DNA of 64,000 bases from Acidimicrobiales bacterium (GTDB lineage: Bacteria > Actinomycetota > Acidimicrobiia > Acidimicrobiales > JBBRAZ01), in assembly GCA_038206295.1 (NCBI GenBank), contig JBBRAZ010000005.1, positions 50,447 through 114,446 on the forward strand. The letters run 5' to 3'. Below the pieces are notes generated by a model, which saw only the letters and a list, made by a program, of their open reading frames with translations, did not search any database and was not told the DNA's origin. Below are positions 34,592 to 44,995 of this stretch, piece by piece. The number at the start of each line of letters is the position of its first letter. Positions within the stretch are counted from its first letter, which is position 1. Made by a program: the position numbers and the translations under genes.

Positions 34592-35518
34592 ATGGCGGAT
34601 CAGGCGCTGCTGGACGAGCTCCACCTCACGCACCTCAAGCAGCTCGAGGCGGAGAGCATCCACATCATCCGGGAGGTGGTCGCTCAGTTCGAGCGGCCCG
34701 TGATGATGTACAGCATCGGCAAGGACAGCTCGGTCATGCTGCACCTGGCGCGCAAGGCCTTCCACCCCGGCAAGATCCCGTTCCCGCTGCTGCACATCGA
34801 CACGACGTGGAAGTTCCGCGACATGATCGCCTTCCGGGACCAGACGGCGAAGGATCTCGGCATCGAGCTGTTGGTGCACTCCAACCCCGAGGGCCTCTCG
34901 CAGGGCATCAACCCGTTCGACCACGGGTCGAAGAACTACACCGACATCATGAAGACGCAGGCGCTCAAGCAGGCGCTGTCTGATCACGGCTTCGACGCCG
35001 CGTTCGGCGGGGCGCGGCGCGACGAGGAGAAGAGCCGGGCCAAGGAGCGCGTGTTCTCGTTCCGCGACCGCAACCACCGGTGGGATCCGAAGAACCAGCG
35101 CCCCGAGCTGTGGAGCATCTACAACGGCCGCGTGAGCCCTGGGGAGAGCATCCGGGTGTTCCCGATCAGCAACTGGACCGAGCTCGACGTCTGGCAGTAC
35201 ATCTACCTCGAGGACATCCCGATCGTGCCGCTGTACTACGCGGCGCCCCGCCCGGTGGTCGATCGCGACGGCGTGCTGATCATGGTCGACGACGACCGCT
35301 TCCGCTTCGAGCAGGACGAGGTCGCCCAGCAGCGGTGGATCCGGTTCCGCACCCTGGGCTGCTACCCGCTGTCGGGTGCGGTCGAGTCCGAGGCTGCGAC
35401 GCTTCCCGACATCATCCAGGAGATGCTGCTCGCCACCCGATCGGAGCGAGAGGGTCGTGTCATCGACTACGACCAGTCCGGGTCGATGGAGGAGAAGAAG
35501 CGAGAGGGCTACTTCTGA
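34592..35518 (+). CDS. cysD: Sulfate adenylyltransferase subunit 2
   Basis: [15 protein letters not shown]...[20 protein letters not shown]...[10 protein letters not shown]...[15 protein letters not shown] is canonical CysD. AAGGAGG precedes the ATG. Confidence 0.95.
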
Positions 35519-37461
35519 TGTCGCACAAGTCCGACCTCATCGCCACCGACATCCTCGCCTACCTGCAGGAGCACGAGAACAAGGACCTGCTGCGGTTCCT
35601 CACGTGCGGCAGCGTCGATGACGGCAAGTCCACGCTCATCGGTCGCCTGCTGCACGACTCGCACATGATCTACGAGGACCAGCTCGCCGCGCTCGAGTCA
35701 GACTCGGCCAGCATCGGCTCCGCGGGCGAGGAGCTCGACCTGGCGCTGCTCATGGACGGCCTCAAGGCCGAGCGCGAGCAGGGCATCACGATCGACGTCG
35801 CGTACCGCTACTTCTCCACCGCTCGGCGGAAGTTCATCATCGCCGACACGCCGGGCCACGAGCAGTACACGCGCAACATGGTCACCGGCGCATCCACGTG
35901 CCAGCTGGCGATCATCCTCGTGGATGCACGCCACGGCATCCTCGAGCAGACCAAGCGGCACAGCTACCTCGCCGCGCTGCTCGGCATCCGCCACATCGTC
36001 GTGGCCATGAACAAGATGGACCTCGTCGACTGGTCGCAGGCGCGCTACGACGAGCTCTGCGCGCAGTACCGCACGACGGTCGCCGAGCGCGTCGGCATCA
36101 AGGACCCGGTCTTCATCCCGATGTCCGCGCTCAAGGGCGACTGGGTCGTTGAGCCGAGCGAGAACCTGGACTGGTACGACGGCCCGGCGCTGCTCGAGCA
36201 CCTCGAGACGGTCAACGTGGATGAGGACGCCGACCTGGAGCACCTGCGCATGCCGGTGCAGCTCGTCGTGCGTCCCGACCTCGACTTCCGGGGGTTCGCC
36301 GGCACCATCTCCGGCGGCGTGCTGCGACCCGGCGACGAGATCGAGGTGCTGCCCAGCGGTGTGCGCTCTCGCGTCGAGCGCATCGTGACCTACGACGGCG
36401 ACCTCCCCGTCGCCGGGCCCGGTCGGGCCGTCACCGTCACCCTCGCCGATGAGGTCGACATCAGCCGCGGCGATCTCCTCGTGCACCCCGGCCGACCGGC
36501 ACAGCGCGCGTACGAGGTCGACGCCACGGTGGTGTGGATGGCCGAGGAGCCGATGGTGCCCGGCAAGCAGTACCTGCTGCAGCAGGCCAACCGCCGCAGC
36601 AACGCCCACGTGCAGACGGTCCACCACCGCATCGACATCAACTCCCTCGACAACGTCGTCGCGCCGACCCTCGAGCTCAACGAGATCGGCCGCTGCACGG
36701 TCGTGGCCGACGAGCCGCTGCTGTTCGACCCCTACGCCGAGAACCGCGTGACCGGCGCGTTCATCCTCGTCGACCGCCTGTCGAACGCGACCGTCGGCGC
36801 TGGGATGATCGATGCCGAGGCCAGCGGCTGGGACGCTCGGCCAGACGCGCACCTCACGGGGCACAGCAGCTCCATCACCGCCGACGAGCGCGAAGCTCGC
36901 TACGGGCAGAAGCCGTGCACGGTGCTGCTCACCGGCCTCACCGGTGCAGGGAAGTCGACCATCGCGGTCGCCCTCGAGCGACGGCTCTTCGAGCGCGGCC
37001 GAGCGACGGTGCGACTCGACGGCGAGAACCTCCGCCTCGGCATCAGCCGCGATCTCGGCTTCGGCCACGCCGATCGCTCCGAGAACCTGCGGCGCAGCAC
37101 CGAGGTGGCGCGCCTGCTCAACGACCAGGGGCTCATCTGCCTCGCGGCGCTGGTGGCACCCGAGGCGCCGGTGCGCCAGCGTGCCCGCGAGCTCGTCGGC
37201 CCCGATCGCTTCGTCGAGGTGTTCCTCGACGCGCCGCTCGAGGTGTGCCGCGAGCGTGACACCAGCGGGCTGTACGAGGCCGCGGACCGCGGCGAGATCG
37301 AAGAGCTGCCCGGCGTCAGCGCACCGTACGACCCACCGAGCGGCGCGGACCTCGTGCTCGACACCGTCGCCAACGACGTGCCCGCGTGCGTCGAGGCGAT
37401 CGTGACGCTGCTCGTCGAGCGCGGCTTCCTGCTCGGGCGTCGAGCTGGCGGAGACGGGTGA
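35518..37461 (+). CDS. cysN: Sulfate adenylyltransferase subunit 1 (GTPase) fused to a divergent APS-kinase-like domain
   Basis: The ATG overlaps the cysD stop. GTPase motifs [14 protein letters not shown] and NKMD are present. The C-terminal ~190 aa are APS-kinase-like ([18 protein letters not shown]), with substitutions at several conserved positions. Confidence 0.92.
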
Positions 37462-38078
37462 GCGAGCCCCGATCCGAGAACATCACCTGGAGCCACAGCC
37501 AGGTGACCGCCCGCCGACGGGCCGAGATCCTCGGACACGCGCCGGCGACGCTCTGGTTCACCGGGCTGTCGGGATCGGGCAAGAGCACCATCGCCATCGC
37601 GGTGGAGGCGGCGCTGGCCGACCGCGGCGTCGCTGCCTACGTGCTCGACGGCGACAACGTCCGCTTCGGCCTCAACCGCGACCTCGGGTTCTCGCCCGAG
37701 GACCGGGTCGAGAACATCCGCCGCATCGGTGAGGTGTGCCGCCTGTTCCACGACGCCGGCCTCGTCGTGCTCACCGCCTTCATCTCGCCGTACCACGCGG
37801 ATCGCGACCTCGTCCGCGCGCTGCACCCCGAGGGCGGGTTCCACGAGGTGTTCGTCGACACGCCGCTGGCGGTGTGCGAGGCGCGTGACGTGAAGGGCCT
37901 CTACGCCAAGGCCCGCGCCGGCGAGATCCCCGAGTTCTCCGGCGTCAGCGCACCGTACGAGCCGCCACCGAGCCCCGAGCTGCGCATCGACACCAGCGAC
38001 CGCAGCATCGAGGGGTGCGTGGACGAGGTCCTGGCGCACCTGCGGGCCGTCGGCGTGCTCGCAGCGCACACGTCGTAG
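37458..38078 (+). CDS. cysC: Adenylylsulfate (APS) kinase, canonical stand-alone copy
   Basis: GTG overlaps the cysNC stop (GTGA). Canonical motifs: [63 protein letters not shown]. Confidence 0.92.
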
Positions 38079-38390
38079 CTAGACCGAGTCGCGCCCGAGG
38101 CGGATCGCCGCCTGCACCACGGCGCGCACCTGGTCCTCAGGCGCGCCGGCGTCGAGCAGCGCCCGGACCCTGCCCTCCAGGTCCACCGCCTGGGCCTCGT
38201 CCACCCGCGGCGGGCCGTCGCGCCGCGCGCTGACAGCGGTGACCGCGAGCAGCACCAGCACCGCGGTGCTGGTCACCAGCCCGATGGCGACGGTGGCGTC
38301 GTTCGCCTCCGCGATCTGGGTGGCGATCATCCCCGCGACGCCCAGCGCGCAGGTGGCGAGGACCAGGCGCCGCACGGCGCGGGCGCTCAC
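38079..38390 (-). CDS. Small two-TM membrane protein, hypothetical
   Basis: 103 aa with two hydrophobic helices and a soluble C-terminus. It starts 3 nt after the ettA stop, so it is probably co-transcribed. Its stop abuts the cysC stop. Confidence 0.55.
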   Translation of the reverse strand: MSARAVRRLVLATCALGVAGMIATQIAEANDATVAIGLVTSTAVLVLLAVTAVSARRDGPPRVDEAQAVDLEGRVRALLDAGAPEDQVRAVVQAAIRLGRDSV

Positions 38391-38393
38391 GGG

Positions 38394-40097
<1,704 letters not shown>

Positions 40098-40143
40098 GGC
40101 GCCAGAGGGTAGCGGTCGCTGCGCGCGCCTCGGCCCGGACGCG

Positions 40144-40182
40144 CACGACCCCCCGCACCGGCATCCGGTGCGGGGGGTCGTG
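40144..40182 (-). terminator. Perfect 18-bp-stem hairpin downstream of the NYN-domain gene
   Basis: cacgaccccccgcaccgg-cat-ccggtgcggggggtcgtg lies 16 nt after the stop at 40198 and upstream of ettA. No U-tract. Confidence 0.6.
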
Positions 40183-40197
40183 TCGAAGCCAGATGGG

Positions 40198-41544
40198 TCA
40201 GCGCCGCTTGGCTGCTGCCTTCTTCTTGGCTGGTGCCTTCTTCTTGGCCGGAGCCTTCTTCTTGGCTGGGGCCTTCTTGGCAGGTGCCTTCTTCTTGGCT
40301 GGTGCCTTCTTCTTCGCGGGCGCCTTCTTCGCAGGTGCCTTCTTCTTGGCCGGAGCCTTCTTCTTCGCGGGCGCCTTCTTCGCAGGTGCCTTCTTCTTGG
40401 CCGGAGCCTTCTTCTTCGCTGCCTTCTTCTTCGCTGGTGTCACCGGCGCCTCCTCGGCGTTGAGTGGATCCGCAGATTTTCTACCATCCTCATCGCCATC
40501 GGTGCGGGAACGAACATCGGTTGTGGCCGGTTCGAGCTCTTCGATGACGCCGAGAGCGGGTGCGACATCGATGCCGTGACGGTCGCCGTCGACCGATGTG
40601 ATCGTGAACCGGTACCTCCCACCGAGTCGCAGCACCGACCGCGCGCTCGGCGGCGCAGGGTCGCCGAGCGCGACGACGGGCACGTAGCAGCTGATGCCAT
40701 CGACATCGATGTAGGCACCGTGCGAGGAGAACCGGTCGACCGTTCCGACGACGTCGGCCCCCGGGGGGTTGGCGCCGATGAACTCGAGGAACGGGAGGAG
40801 GTCGTTGATCGCCTCCAGCGGGCGCTGCGTGCCACGGGACCGGTTGCGCCCGCTGCCGCGCTGGCCATCCTTCGACGTCGCAGCGTCCTTGGGTGTGCTG
40901 GCGGCAGCGGCGCGCCCGCCGCCGCGGCCACGTCCGCCGGCGGGCGCCTTGGCCGCTTTCTTCGCCACCTTGCCGGTGTCGCCGACCTTCGGGGGGGCGC
41001 CGCTGGCGCTGACGATGACCTCATCGGGCTTCAGCCCCGTGACCTCGCTGGCCTTGCCGCGTCCGCCGCGTCCGCGTCCGCGGCCACCACCGCCACCACC
41101 TCGGGTGGCCTGGCGGCTGACGGCGCCGCGCACCGGCCTGCGGTACTCGAACACCCAGCCGATGCCGGTGATGGGCACGCCGCCCACGAGGCGACCGTCG
41201 TCGAACAGCCAGGTGTACTCGCCGTGGAACTCCTGGAAGGAGTCGTTGGAGAGGACCGTGGCGCCGACCTTGTCGGCGATCTTCAGGATGAAGGCGTCGC
41301 CGCGGCCGATGACGCCGGCTGGGGGGCGCACGAGCTCGCCGGCGAGCAGCGCCTCCTCGTAGAGGTCGCGCTCGGACGGATCGATGCGGTTCGGGAAGGT
41401 GGCGTCGACGACGACGGTCACCTGATCGAAGCTGTGGTCCTTCAGGAATGAGCGGACGGCCTCGTCGAGCTGCGCCAAGCTGGGCTTGGTGCGCCCCTCG
41501 GTCGCCAGGTTCGATCCATCGACGACCAGCTGGGTCTGTTTCAT
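40198..41544 (-). CDS. Zc3h12a/Regnase-like NYN ribonuclease domain - RGG-rich linker - S1-like domain - Lys/Ala/Pro-rich histone-H1-like tail
   Basis: The N-terminus QLVVDGSNLATEG...GDAFILKIADKVGATVLSNDSFQEFH...GRLVGG parallels the Regnase-1 NYN motifs ([26 protein letters not shown]). RGGGGGGRGRGRGGRG box. VGTVDRFSSHGAYIDVDGISCYVPV is S1-like. The tail is (APAKKK)n. AGGAG lies 12 nt before the ATG at 41544. Confidence 0.82.
   Translation of the reverse strand: MKQTQLVVDGSNLATEGRTKPSLAQLDEAVRSFLKDHSFDQVTVVVDATFPNRIDPSERDLYEEALLAGELVRPPAGVIGRGDAFILKIADKVGATVLSNDSFQEFHGEYTWLFDDGRLVGGVPITGIGWVFEYRRPVRGAVSRQATRGGGGGGRGRGRGGRGKASEVTGLKPDEVIVSASGAPPKVGDTGKVAKKAAKAPAGGRGRGGGRAAAASTPKDAATSKDGQRGSGRNRSRGTQRPLEAINDLLPFLEFIGANPPGADVVGTVDRFSSHGAYIDVDGISCYVPVVALGDPAPPSARSVLRLGGRYRFTITSVDGDRHGIDVAPALGVIEELEPATTDVRSRTDGDEDGRKSADPLNAEEAPVTPAKKKAAKKKAPAKKKAPAKKAPAKKKAPAKKKAPAKKAPAKKKAPAKKKAPAKKAPAKKKAPAKKKAPAKKKAAAKRR
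40201..40436 (-). repeat. In-frame tandem DNA repeat (51-nt period) encoding the PAKKKAPAKKKAPAKKA tail
   Basis: caggtgccttcttcttggc... recurs at 40281, 40332 and 40383 with near-identical units. More diverged copies flank them. Confidence 0.85.
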
Positions 41545-41886
41545 GTGGTGTGTGCGGCTCCTGCGATGTGCACGAGTCGGACGATCCGCACTCGTGGTGC
41601 GCCGGGTCCGGTCGCTGCAGCCACGGCGGCGGGCGGGGACTCCAGGCCTGGTGCGATGGCGGGCGGGTGGATCCTGCCCAGCCGCTGCACCCGCAGCACC
41701 CGGATCGAGCCCGTCGACCGCTGCGCGCAGGCGCACCGTCACGACGTCTTCTCCACTATGCCACCTCAATCGGACGAAGGAGCACATCAGCGTCCGGTGC
41801 GTCGCGTCCCCGCTGGGTGATCGTGGCGCATAGCCTGCGCCTGCGCTGCCCGGTGGGGTGGCGCGGCGAGCACCGGGAGCCGCAGC

Positions 41887-44005: not shown

Positions 44006-44995
44006 ATGACCACCTCACCTGCCCCACCCGCCACAGATCGAGCCGACAGGTGGCCGAGCCCGTTCCCTGGGGTCGATGCCCACCCGGTCGAGCGGCTCAT
44101 GCACCTCGCGGCGATGCAGCACGGCCTCGTCTCGACCTACCAGGCAGAGGTGATCGGTGTCGGGCGGTCGCGCCTCCAATCGATGCAGCGGCGCGGCGTG
44201 CTCATCCACGCGGGGCGAGGGGTCTGGGCCCTACCGGGATCGCCGGAGACCGAGCGCCAGGTGCTGCTGCGACCGTGCCTCTCCTACGGCGGCGTCGCCT
44301 CTCATCGAGCTGCGGGCTCGCTGCACCGCATCGAGGCGTGGACGGAGCGTCCCATCGAGCTGACTGTCGAGCGCTCGCGCTCGGTGGACGTCCCCGGTGG
44401 GATCGTGCATCGGACGCAGGACCTCATCGCCGACGACATCGTGATCATCGACTCGATCCCGGTGACGTCGCCAGCGCGAACGCTCGTCGATCTCGGCTCG
44501 GTCGTCCCGGCGGTCCTGGTGAGCAGGTCCGTCAACCACGCGCTCCGCCTCATGCTCACCACGATCGTCGAGCTGCAGCTGGTCGCGGACCGCGTTGGGC
44601 GGCACGGCCGGTCGGGAGCCGGCGTGCTGCGCCGCGTCCTCGATGGGAAGGTGGCTGAGCACCAGCTCATGGAGAGCCCGCTGGAGTCGGATTTCCTCGA
44701 CCTGTGCATCGTGCACGGCCTCCCGGCACCGTCGGTGCAGCACCCTGTGCGGGTGAACGGCAGGGATCGCAGGCTGGACGTCGCGTGGCCGAGCGTGAAG
44801 CTCTGCGTCGAGCTCCTCGGGTACGAGCATCACGGCCAGCGCGAGCGCTTCGAGGAGGACAGGAGGCGGACGAACGACCTGCAGCTCGCTGGGTGGACCG
44901 TGCTCGAGTTCACCGCCGATGACGTGCGCCGGCGTGGGTCCAGGACGATCTCCCTTGTGCTGCGGATGCTCGACCGACTGGGCTACCCGGGTTGA
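44006..44995 (+). CDS. AbiEi-like N-terminal (wHTH) domain plus C-terminal DUF559 (Vsr-like endonuclease fold) protein
   Basis: QHGLVSTYQAEVIGVGRSRLQSMQRRGVLIHAGRGVW...VTSPARTLVDL at the N-terminus. ESPLESDFLDLC...RLDVAWPSVKLCVELLGYEHHG...DRRRTNDLQLAGWTVLEF is the DUF559 pattern. Confidence 0.82.
   Translation: MTTSPAPPATDRADRWPSPFPGVDAHPVERLMHLAAMQHGLVSTYQAEVIGVGRSRLQSMQRRGVLIHAGRGVWALPGSPETERQVLLRPCLSYGGVASHRAAGSLHRIEAWTERPIELTVERSRSVDVPGGIVHRTQDLIADDIVIIDSIPVTSPARTLVDLGSVVPAVLVSRSVNHALRLMLTTIVELQLVADRVGRHGRSGAGVLRRVLDGKVAEHQLMESPLESDFLDLCIVHGLPAPSVQHPVRVNGRDRRLDVAWPSVKLCVELLGYEHHGQRERFEEDRRRTNDLQLAGWTVLEFTADDVRRRGSRTISLVLRMLDRLGYPG

Follow-up and report, generated by a model that had tools for sequence, protein, structure and literature searches.

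The gene treated here lies on the minus strand of a stretch of 64,000 nucleotides from an Acidimicrobiales bacterium (hereafter the window). Its product, which we call NYN-S1, joins a nuclease-type domain to an S1 domain through disordered segments, and ettA lies downstream of it. The features of the locus are the following.

38394..40097, minus strand: ettA (energy-dependent translational throttle, ABC-F), the downstream neighbor; TIGR03719, 899 bits, above cutoff
40106..40111, minus strand: TACCCT, a -10 box of the TANNNT type, 8 nt upstream of the ettA ATG
40144..40182, minus strand: GC-rich hairpin (perfect stem of 18 bp, loop of 3 nt), 15 nt past the NYN-S1 stop, without a U-tract
40198..41544, minus strand: NYN-S1 coding sequence, 448 aa, with the TGA stop at 40198-40200; homologues at E<1e-100
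40201..40437, minus strand: (PAKKK)n histone-H1-like tail, aa 370-448, from composition and tandem repeat
40438..40539, minus strand: acidic disordered spacer, aa 336-369, net charge -6, from composition and pLDDT
40444-40458, minus strand: AEEAP, the conserved motif closing the spacer, aa 363-367, with E365 at least 90% conserved
40540..40815, minus strand: S1/OB-fold with an N-terminal helix, aa 244-335, from pLDDT, Foldseek and Pfam matches in relatives
40816..41100, minus strand: basic disordered linker, aa 149-243, net charge +15, 25 Gly and 12 Arg, pLDDT mostly <50
40912-40938, minus strand: second RG/RGG run, aa 203-211, reading GGRGRGGGR
40978..40992, minus strand: PKVGD, a short linear motif in the linker, aa 185-189, from its recurrence in the family
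41056-41103, minus strand: first RG/RGG run, aa 148-163, reading RGGGGGGRGRGRGGRG
41101..41544, minus strand: NYN domain (Zc3h12a/Regnase-type, PIN-like), aa 1-148, from Pfam, PDB profile search, pLDDT, Foldseek and residue invariance
Within aa 1-148: putative active site, D9, N12, D47, D83, S99-N100-D101 and E105
41558..41562, minus strand: AGGAG, Shine-Dalgarno-like, 13 nt upstream of the NYN-S1 ATG, read from the sequence

A preliminary description of this DNA had given a 448-aa reading frame at 40198-41544, and re-reading of the minus strand returned exactly that frame: 448 codons plus the stop, identical to the earlier quotation. The spacing to the [VIL]DGSN motif supports the ATG at 41544 as the start: of 79 relatives, 58 likewise have an ATG exactly 7 codons ahead of this motif. 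A Shine-Dalgarno-like sequence precedes the gene in 19 of the 79 related loci; in 54 a different conserved motif is present instead. In relatives this upstream element carries TG(C/G)TT(C/G)ACT; when it was considered as an RNA structure, RNAalifold returned zero consensus pairs.

The N-terminal domain had been likened to the NYN nuclease of Regnase/Zc3h12a, and this likeness is borne out by Pfam, by profile search of the PDB and by the predicted fold. PF11977 covers aa 5-109, its score of 27.8 bits exceeding the cutoff of 23 (E=2.5e-6), and it also matches 60 of 60 relatives, the best at E=6.4e-11. With the full-length sequence as query, the PDB yielded weak ribosomal S1 matches only, so that KHNYN (2.9e-5) and ZC3H12A (1.1e-4) were reached only with a family profile of the NYN domain by itself. 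At E<=2e-3, this profile found solely the NYN domains of KHNYN and ZC3H12A/B/C. The AlphaFold2 model of aa 1-148 has a pLDDT of about 90, and Foldseek matched it to the nuclease domains of MCPIP1, ZC3H12C and PRORP, including both PRORP1 and PRORP2 (3V34, 3V33 and 7NDJ/7NDK; E=1.2e-5 to 2e-4, target-normalized TM 0.59-0.65). Other NYN/PIN models of Pfam, including YacP (PF05991) and PRORP (PF16953), gave no match to NYN-S1 at E<=10.

Alignment with Regnase-1 places D9 at D141, N12 at N144, D83 at D226, S99 at S242, D101 at D244 and E105 at D248. Four of the five acids of Regnase-1 (D9, D83, D101 and E105) are retained in this way, plus N12. The catalytic residues proposed earlier (D9, N12, the Asp of GD and the Asp of SND) proved invariant across the family of 268 sequences. 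D83, S99, N100, D101 and E105 are identical in 268/268; D9 and N12 also occur in all 268, but they are part of the motif used to extract the domains and are independently invariant in the 60-sequence alignment only. The equivalent of Regnase D225 is an invariant glycine, G82, and an extra acid that follows strand 2, D47, is kept in 266 of the 268. Judged by strand topology, D47 may compensate for the acid lost at the D225 position.

The glycine found there in all members could also mean that the NYN domain is a pseudonuclease, the protein being a catalytically inactive RNA-binding protein or chaperone that acts through S1 and the basic disordered regions. There is precedent, as NYN proteins of this kind are described, e.g., C. 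elegans NYN-1 (10.64898/2026.09.04.749402). Yet the metal-binding constellation is retained throughout the family, from D9 and N12 to D83, the S99-N100-D101 triplet and E105, with D47 in all but two sequences, and such strict retention is not expected of a pseudoenzyme. Identity within the NYN domain is 59-74% across about 270 sampled members and the linkers diverge freely, which is the pattern expected for a constrained enzyme. We consider an inactive NYN-S1 highly unlikely.

The second folded module is the S1 domain, for which AlphaFold2 predicts five strands at a pLDDT of about 97. Its closest structural match comes from ribosomal protein S1: Foldseek aligned it to the C-terminal S1 domain of M. 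tuberculosis RpsA (4NNI) with E=7.6e-6 and an rmsd of 1.1 A over 79 columns. TM was 0.78 to the single S1 domains 5IE8 and 9IOT. The segment had been called S1/OB-like before, a view upheld by this fold and by the relatives, 44 of 60 of which match PF00575 at E<=1e-3 (best 6.2e-8; 36.5 bits in member P0173), whereas NYN-S1 itself scores just under the cutoff of 22 (19.4 bits, E=1.4e-3). In the 60-sequence alignment F272, S274, H275, G276, A277, Y287, P296 and P298 are invariant, and Y278, D319, R322 and R323 nearly so. By a manual alignment, H275, Y278, D319 and R323 probably correspond to F19, F22, D64 and R68 of the PNPase S1 domain. The canonical His34 position of S1 domains is not clearly kept. 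The domain is acidic, with a net charge of -6 and no lysine at all.

The remainder of the protein is predicted to be disordered. Family members differ in how long the linker is and in its composition. The RGG-type segment noted earlier is indeed present, in two runs, but it is not a conserved trait: at least three RG dipeptides occur in the linkers of only 53 of 178 members, and at least five in 14. PKVGD is an instance of (P)DGxxP[KRQ][IV]GD, a motif that about 23 of the 268 members have in comparable places and that did not turn up in any shuffled sequence. At the other junction, a motif of the type AEEA...KK is found in 131 of the 194 members that extend beyond S1. The PAKKK tail itself was described correctly for this protein, where 37 of 79 residues are Lys (with 28 Ala and 12 Pro; net charge +39), but it is not family-wide, a large subfamily of about 350 aa having no C-terminal tail. 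The DNA that encodes the tail is a tandem repeat with a period of 51 nt, 4.3 copies and 91% match. At E<=1e-3, Pfam HC2 is found in 48 of the 60 relatives, and the histone-H1-like NCBIfam model NF038053 matches NYN-S1 weakly (16.9 bits; cutoff 80). These matches reflect composition and do not by themselves show homology. The conserved core of the family is thus made up of the NYN domain, a basic disordered region and S1, and the RGG character and the H1-like tail are lineage-specific additions.

HupB likewise carries a lysine-repeat tail of the PAKKA type. The tails of Ku and TopA share with NYN-S1 the same Lys/Ala/Pro low-complexity repeat at the C-terminus of a nucleic-acid enzyme; Ku and TopA act on DNA, whereas the NYN-S1 tail sits on a predicted RNase and is absent from much of the family (PMC3553676, PMC5714199). 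Tails of the PAKKA or lysine-repeat kind increase DNA affinity in Ku of mycobacteria and TopA of Streptomyces (PMC3553676, PMC5714199), and the PIN-like superfamily is described as including the FEN-type DNA nucleases (PMC5499597). NYN-S1 could accordingly be a nucleoid-associated, H1-like protein with a PIN-like domain directed at ssDNA or flaps in repair or replication, or one that merely compacts DNA. The HC2 and NF038053 matches are in keeping with such a role, OB folds are capable of binding ssDNA, and genes for PolA and a UvrD-like helicase are neighbors in some genomes. On the other hand, the closest relatives by both sequence and fold (Regnase, KHNYN and PRORP) are RNA endonucleases, the OB module is an S1-type one, and Pfam detected no DNA-binding module of the FEN-like H3TH/H2TH kind. 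Because a large subfamily is wholly tail-less, the tail cannot define the core function either. A DNA-directed role is thus quite improbable in our estimation.

No perfect inverted repeat in the window is stronger than the hairpin past the NYN-S1 stop. In 26 related loci the 260 nt that precede ettA were examined for their longest perfect stem; in 19 of them it measured 9-16 bp, with differing sequences. The preliminary description called it a perfect 18-bp terminator hairpin. The stem is as described, but it lacks part of the signature of an intrinsic terminator: no U-tract follows (the tail reads GCGCGUCCGGGCC), and a consensus terminator scan did not call it. Since the U-tract is missing, the label of terminator is an interpretation, and the hairpin is probably either a terminator or a 3′-end stabilizer of the NYN-S1 transcript. 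The bases that follow it, CGCGTCCGG, recur in relatives; in the window, the 9-mer has 6 matches against 8.1 expected by chance. Rfam and tRNA scans of the entire 64-kb window gave no matches.

A TANNNT box precedes the ettA ATG by 6-11 nt in 25 of 26 related loci, and by 7-8 nt in 21 of them. Set against the actinobacterial -10 consensus, this suggests a separate promoter for ettA and an mRNA without a leader. With a strong hairpin between them and a box of its own before ettA, the two genes appear to be separate transcription units. The earlier statement that the gene lies directly upstream of ettA is true of the window but does not extend to a general link, since of 56 related loci only 23 (about 40%) have ettA as the next gene downstream, and 32 lack it at that position. 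An operon of NYN-S1 and ettA as the general case was rejected on these grounds.

These observations bear on the possibility that NYN-S1 is a ribosome-associated nuclease linked to EttA, which would serve in mRNA surveillance, as Rae1/YacP does, or in rRNA maturation, in the manner of the PIN enzyme Nob1. Rae1/YacP of B. subtilis is a ribosome-dependent NYN endoribonuclease, which counts in favor. So do the same-strand ettA where it adjoins, the RpsA-like S1 domain, and the polycationic tails, which would bind rRNA. IF2_N modules, otherwise found in a translation factor, occur in 3 of 267 members; they point the same way but are rare in the family. Weighing against this role are the loci in which ettA is elsewhere, the apparent separation of the transcription units, and the match to PF11977 rather than to the YacP family or any other NYN/PIN model. 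We regard a dedicated ribosomal function as unlikely.

The wider context is chromosomal and of a housekeeping kind. The 80 genome loci that were kept come from 80 different contigs, and synteny is conserved with kgd, M20, HAD and ettA. In some genomes polA and a UvrD-like helicase gene lie within a few kb. In the window, a gene of the AbiEi_4/DUF559 type is found at 44006-44995, about 2.5 kb from NYN-S1. This neighbor would fit a reading of NYN-S1 as a PIN/NYN-type toxin or an anti-phage defense nuclease, and many bacterial PIN-like proteins are described as toxins (PMC5499597). However, PADLOC gave no defense match for NYN-S1, searches of plasmids and phages found no relatives, no small antitoxin gene is adjacent, and the housekeeping synteny is conserved across Acidimicrobiia. 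The defense and mobile-element readings were rejected on the negative PADLOC, plasmid and phage searches, and we give a toxin or defense role hardly any credence.

NYN-S1 is not a singular protein. The four modules named in the preliminary description are all present in it, as HMM, PDB profile search and predicted fold independently confirm, and its family within Acidimicrobiia is large and already annotated automatically under the names 'NYN domain-containing', 'S1 RNA-binding domain-containing' and 'histone H1-like repetitive region-containing protein'. The family comprises 5572 proteins at E<=1e-3. All relatives that carry a name are Acidimicrobiia; they come from at least 585 species genomes and form about 285 clusters when grouped at 50% identity. 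Cultured carriers include Aquihabitans sp. McL0605 and Iamia. In GTDB species genomes, the NYN domain most similar to that of NYN-S1 is 77% identical. NCBIfam offers weak S1 and H1-like matches only and contains no model of the family. It had been said that no characterized bacterial protein has this architecture, and our literature search agrees, having found no paper that describes the family or such a protein. NYN-S1 belongs to the bacterial RNase_Zc3h12a group of Matelska et al. (2017; PMC5499597), where 154 bacterial PF11977 members are reported as evolutionarily separate from the eukaryotic ones and of 'unknown function in bacteria'. The accessible text of that paper makes no mention of an S1 fusion (the term 'S1 domain' is absent from it), basic tails, restriction to Acidimicrobiia or the invariant residues, and the family is by now far larger than those 154 members.

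Among known systems, the eukaryotic Zc3h12a-type enzymes (Regnase-1/MCPIP1, ZC3H12B-D, KHNYN and N4BP1) share most with NYN-S1: PF11977 above cutoff, the fold (TM about 0.6), the catalytic motifs DGSN, (D)D-x-F and SND-x3-D/E, and the fusion of the NYN nuclease to a separate RNA-binding module. Identity is only about 20-24%, however, and NYN-S1 differs in having Gly at D225 and the extra acid D47. Its RNA-binding partner is S1 rather than a CCCH zinc finger or a KH domain. Unlike the eukaryotic enzymes, NYN-S1 is bacterial, is found in one class only and has Lys- and Arg/Gly-rich disordered regions; equivalents of their UPF1 or ZAP partners are not known for it. Rae1/YacP and PRORP are likewise PIN-like, NYN-type RNA endonucleases, but NYN-S1 matches neither PF05991 nor PF16953 and is without PPR or zinc modules, and Rae1 is without the S1 domain and the basic tails that NYN-S1 has. 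Dis3/Rrp44 (PIN + CSD + RNB + S1) resembles NYN-S1 in uniting a PIN-like endonuclease and S1 in one RNA-acting polypeptide; NYN-S1 differs in having no RNB exonuclease domain, in its PIN subtype and in being bacterial.

In overall design NYN-S1 also resembles RNase E/G, which has an endonuclease domain, S1, and long basic disordered regions with embedded conserved short motifs. The disordered regions of RNase E are described as binding RNA and driving condensates (PMC12618670; 10.64898/2026.08.11.744331). The likeness does not extend to the catalytic fold, which is DNase-I-like/RNase H-like in RNase E and unrelated to the PIN-like NYN of NYN-S1, and there is no sign in NYN-S1 of 5′-end sensing, tetramerization or partner proteins.

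In sum, we think it probable that NYN-S1 is an active, Mg2+/Mn2+-dependent housekeeping endoribonuclease of RNA processing or decay in Acidimicrobiia. NYN domains of the Zc3h12a type are described as Mg2+-dependent endoribonucleases that owe their specificity to fused RNA-binding modules (PMC5499597). In NYN-S1 the NYN domain, of the Regnase/PRORP type, would cleave RNA, not DNA, in an acidic pocket formed by D9, D47, D83, D101 and E105 with N12 and S99-N100, and the S1 barrel would grip single-stranded RNA. The Gly/Arg linker and the PAKKK tail would add a high, sequence-independent affinity for RNA and other polyanions (ribosomes, nucleoid, polyphosphate). By analogy with the Arg-rich disordered C-terminal region of RNase E, these polycationic segments may concentrate the enzyme on its substrates, and the short motifs PKVGD and AEEAP may serve in partner docking.

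Several observations count against the endoribonuclease reading. These are G82 in place of D225, the acidic, Lys-less S1 domain, and the canonical His34 position, which is not obviously kept. The gene context points to no specific substrate. In addition, PAKKA-type tails of actinobacteria have so far been documented on the DNA-binding proteins Ku and TopA (PMC3553676, PMC5714199). A bolder proposal, which we hold possible but doubtful, is that NYN-S1 is a so far unrecognized major endoribonuclease of the whole class, an enzyme of the Regnase/PRORP fold with a role like that of RNase E/Y/J in global mRNA decay or stable-RNA maturation. Its disordered regions, with their conserved short motifs, would then be a degradosome or condensate scaffold, possibly on ribosomes, and the gene-specific element that precedes the start codon in most relatives might be autoregulatory. 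Autoregulatory sites are known for other RNases.

What is known of bacterial RNA decay comes from a few endonucleases (RNase E/G, Y, J and III). Soil, seawater and activated sludge all harbor abundant Acidimicrobiia, whose RNA metabolism is, to our knowledge, essentially unexplored. A strongly constrained Regnase-type nuclease that carries its own S1 domain across the sampled Acidimicrobiia is a specific candidate for a new family of housekeeping RNases. Eukaryotes employ the combination of an NYN nuclease with an RNA-binding module in immune and antiviral mRNA decay (Regnase-1, KHNYN and N4BP1), and NYN-S1 offers a bacterial model of this design in one polypeptide. The G82/D47 pair provides a test case for rewiring of the NYN active site. 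Finally, the family is a natural series of variants in which to test what basic disordered regions do for an RNase: some members are tail-less and some end in an H1-like tail, and linkers can be rich in Lys or in RG.

The NYN-S1 protein consists of two folded domains set in long disordered regions. In an AlphaFold2 model built from 60 family members, aa 1-150 (pLDDT ~90) and aa 245-335 (pLDDT ~97) form confident folds and the rest is modelled as disordered. The whole protein has a pI of 10.2, the NYN and S1 folds themselves being acidic (5.2 and 4.6). The features needed here are:

40198-41544, minus strand: NYN-S1 ORF, 448 codons plus a TGA stop, starting MKQTQLVVDGSNLATEGR
41558-41562, minus strand: AGGAG, of the Shine-Dalgarno (SD) type, 13 nt before the start codon (ATG at 41544)
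aa 149-243: disordered linker, net charge +15
aa 336-369: disordered acidic spacer
40106-40111, minus strand: TACCCT, a TANNNT box 8 nt upstream of the ettA ATG

Comparison with 79 related loci supports the start codon well: 58 of them place an ATG precisely 7 codons ahead of [VIL]DGSN. A mechanical ORF list prolongs the same frame to 978 aa, for no other reason than that stop codons are rare at ~70% G+C.

As the preliminary description proposed, the protein begins with an NYN domain of the Zc3h12a type. It scores 27.8 bits against Pfam PF11977 (cutoff 23), a model matched by all 60 aligned relatives and the only NYN or PIN model in Pfam to match the query even at E ≤ 10. A profile built from eight NYN domains of the family, searched against the PDB at E ≤ 2e-3, found KHNYN (2.9e-5), ZC3H12A/B/C (~1e-4) and nothing else. 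Foldseek on the domain model gave the nuclease domains of MCPIP1, ZC3H12C and PRORP1/2 (E ~1e-5, TM ~0.6 on target). The active site of Regnase-1 (residues as listed in PMC5499597) was mapped onto the query through an HMM alignment with ZC3H12A.

Query residues and their Regnase-1 equivalents
D9: D141
N12: N144
G82: D225
D83: D226, the Mg2+ ligand
S99: S242
D101: D244
E105: D248

Conservation at the putative active site is strict: D83, S99, N100, D101 and E105 are invariant in 268 family NYN domains, as are G82, E16, R81 and R118. Those domains were extracted by a motif containing D9 and N12, whose invariance there is thus not independent; both are, independently, invariant in the 60-sequence alignment. 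D47, directly after strand 2, is kept in 266 of 268 domains. From the topology of the PIN fold it would occupy the position of the second acidic residue of canonical PIN domains, and may therefore stand in for Regnase-1 D225. That the domain is a pseudonuclease we regard as very improbable.

The C-terminal folded domain is an S1 barrel, in keeping with the S1/OB-like segment first noticed there. Of all Foldseek matches, the best is to M. tuberculosis RpsA, in its C-terminal S1 domain (E=7.6e-6, rmsd 1.1 A), and isolated S1 domains reach TM 0.78. The Pfam S1 score of the query falls just under the cutoff (19.4 vs. 22 bits), and 44 of 60 relatives match at E ≤ 1e-3.

The disordered parts also agree with the first reading. 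RG/RGG runs lie at aa 148-163 and aa 203-211, and the tail (aa 370-448) holds 37 Lys, 28 Ala and 12 Pro. Its DNA is a tandem repeat with a period of 51 nt (4.3 copies, 91% match), suggestive of a recent expansion through slippage. The resemblance of this tail to histone H1 suggests a role on DNA or the nucleoid, and lysine-repeat tails on actinobacterial Ku and TopA raise DNA affinity (PMC3553676, PMC5714199); on the whole evidence we hold such a role to be unlikely.

The family is large. Homologue searches returned more than 3300 proteins with the query and 5572 with a short-form member, the best 120 matches in each all having E < 1e-93; wherever a protein match bears an organism name, the name is from Acidimicrobiia (Acidimicrobiales, Microthrixaceae, Iamia, Aquihabitans). 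When a single genome of each GTDB species was scanned by pattern, at least 585 relatives were confirmed. Among the best 80 of these, almost all labels are Acidimicrobiia or unspecific Actinomycetota, the two exceptions being "Acidobacteria bacterium" and a "Bifidobacterium breve" metagenome-assembled genome. A filter-free HMMER search with the NYN domain against 1.84 billion cluster representatives matched 826 clusters at E ≤ 1e-3, of which 562 reach E ≤ 1e-10 and 285 reach E ≤ 1e-30. The taxonomic labels cover the closer matches, and more distant members may lie outside the class.

Common to the family is an N-terminal NYN domain, a basic low-complexity linker and S1. Across the sampled members the NYN domain is 59-74% identical to that of the query, and the linkers are not alignable. 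Most long members have the C-terminal Lys/Ala/Pro tail (K+A+P above 50% of the last 70 residues in 181/236). In a large subfamily of ~340-420 aa the protein stops directly after S1, the longer of these having the Lys/Ala-rich segment moved to the linker. RG-richness is a local flavour (at least three RG dipeptides in 53 of 178 linkers). Short motifs recur in the disordered parts: (P)DGxxP[KR][IV]GD in ~23 of 268 members (PKVGD, aa 185-189, in the query) and, where the tail joins, an AEEA(P)-type motif in 131 of 194 (query aa 363-367). IF2_N (PF04760), elsewhere typical of translation initiation factor IF-2, is a rare accessory module in the linker or at the C-terminus of three members: P0197 (aa 192-293, two copies) and P0173 (aa 460-507), both above the Pfam cutoff, and P0256 (aa 347-392), detected only by an ad hoc HMM made from those copies.

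Gene order in the window is the housekeeping order of related genomes: cysH/cysNC-like genes, ettA (-), NYN-S1 (-), M20 peptidase (+), HAD phosphatase (+), AbiEi_4/DUF559, kgd/sucA (-) and an EEP-family gene. In 58 of 72 cases (from 80 genome loci), the next gene upstream of NYN-S1 is a divergent HAD or M20 gene. PADLOC, plasmid and phage searches found no NYN-S1 relatives, which argues against a toxin or defence nuclease; we consider that reading extremely unlikely. The 329-aa ORF at 44006-44995 (+), between the HAD gene and kgd, joins an N-terminus resembling the AbiEi_4 antitoxin to a DUF559 C-terminus; it was not found in the syntenic loci L001 and L082-L084, and may therefore have come in as a mobile or defence-related insertion. 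Two tandem APS-kinase (PF01583) domains (~36910-37360 and 37543-37992, +), the first fused to a CysN-like GTPase (ORF 34984-37461) and the second in the next ORF (37260-38078), may reflect duplication or overlapping gene calls.

The adjacency to ettA holds in the window, where ettA is directly downstream on the same strand, but recurs in only 23 of 56 related loci. Similarly, the proposed terminator hairpin (40144-40182) does have a perfect 18-bp stem, the strongest perfect inverted repeat of the whole 64 kb, but it lacks a U-tract and a consensus terminator scan makes no call. Of 26 loci, 19 have perfect stems of 9-16 bp in this intergenic region, differing in sequence. Just 3' of the hairpin (40135-40143, -), the bases are similar in many genomes, (T)CGCGTCCGG, though the stems differ (L002, L008, L018, L025, L026, L030, L040, L051, L053); within the window such 9-mers are not over-represented (6 matches vs. 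8.1 expected).

Of 26 Acidimicrobiia loci (drawn from L002-L078), 25 have a TANNNT box 6-11 nt ahead of the ettA start codon, 21 of them at 7-8 nt. TANNNT is the actinobacterial -10 consensus. Its position just before the ATG suggests that ettA across Acidimicrobiia is translated from a leaderless mRNA with its own promoter. NYN-S1 and ettA seem to be transcribed separately. The ettA transcript may end in a hairpin at 38254-38273, where a perfect 20-nt palindrome, ACCAGCACCGCGGTGCTGGT, lies ~120 nt past the ettA stop codon.

Upstream of the NYN-S1 ATG, 54 of 79 related loci (L003-L081) carry the motif [TG][GC][CGA]TT[CG]A[CA]T, typically GCTGCTTCACT or GGTGGTTGACT. It spans -19 to -11 from the start codon, beginning at -19 ± 1 in 48 loci; with a background of just 0.11 per kb across the loci, it is specific to this gene. 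Further upstream, near -45 to -38, is a second conserved box; RNAalifold found no consensus structure. The element may serve as a short-leader promoter or as an operator for autoregulation. Motif and SD-like sequence are largely mutually exclusive: the window is of the SD type, and the motif is absent from 41545-41604. Upstream of the SD is a 7-bp inverted repeat, CACGAGT(N12)ACTCGTG (41563-41590, -), within the 342-nt divergent intergenic region common to the NYN-S1 and M20 peptidase genes.

A literature search for the NYN-S1 protein, its family or Acidimicrobiia RNases found no paper, and databases annotate members by domain, nothing more. A bacterial PF11977 branch is given, with "unknown function in bacteria", by Matelska et al. 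(PMC5499597). The protein is therefore an uncharacterised form within a known type of nuclease rather than a novel kind of system. Its likeness to eukaryotic Regnase and KHNYN (NYN with a separate RNA-binding module) is one of ancestry, and that to RNase E (S1, a catalytic domain and a basic disordered region with short motifs) is one of function.

We infer that an active metal-dependent endoribonuclease of housekeeping character best fits the evidence. The NYN domain would cut RNA, S1 would provide the grip on single-stranded RNA, and the polycationic disordered regions would lend non-specific affinity for RNA or ribosomes, possibly with clustering. On a rough division, general mRNA decay or stable-RNA processing, taken jointly, is the probable function; a specifically ribosome-linked role is rather doubtful. 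Every functional statement made here is inferential, and the NYN-S1 protein makes a good candidate for a housekeeping RNase specific to the class.
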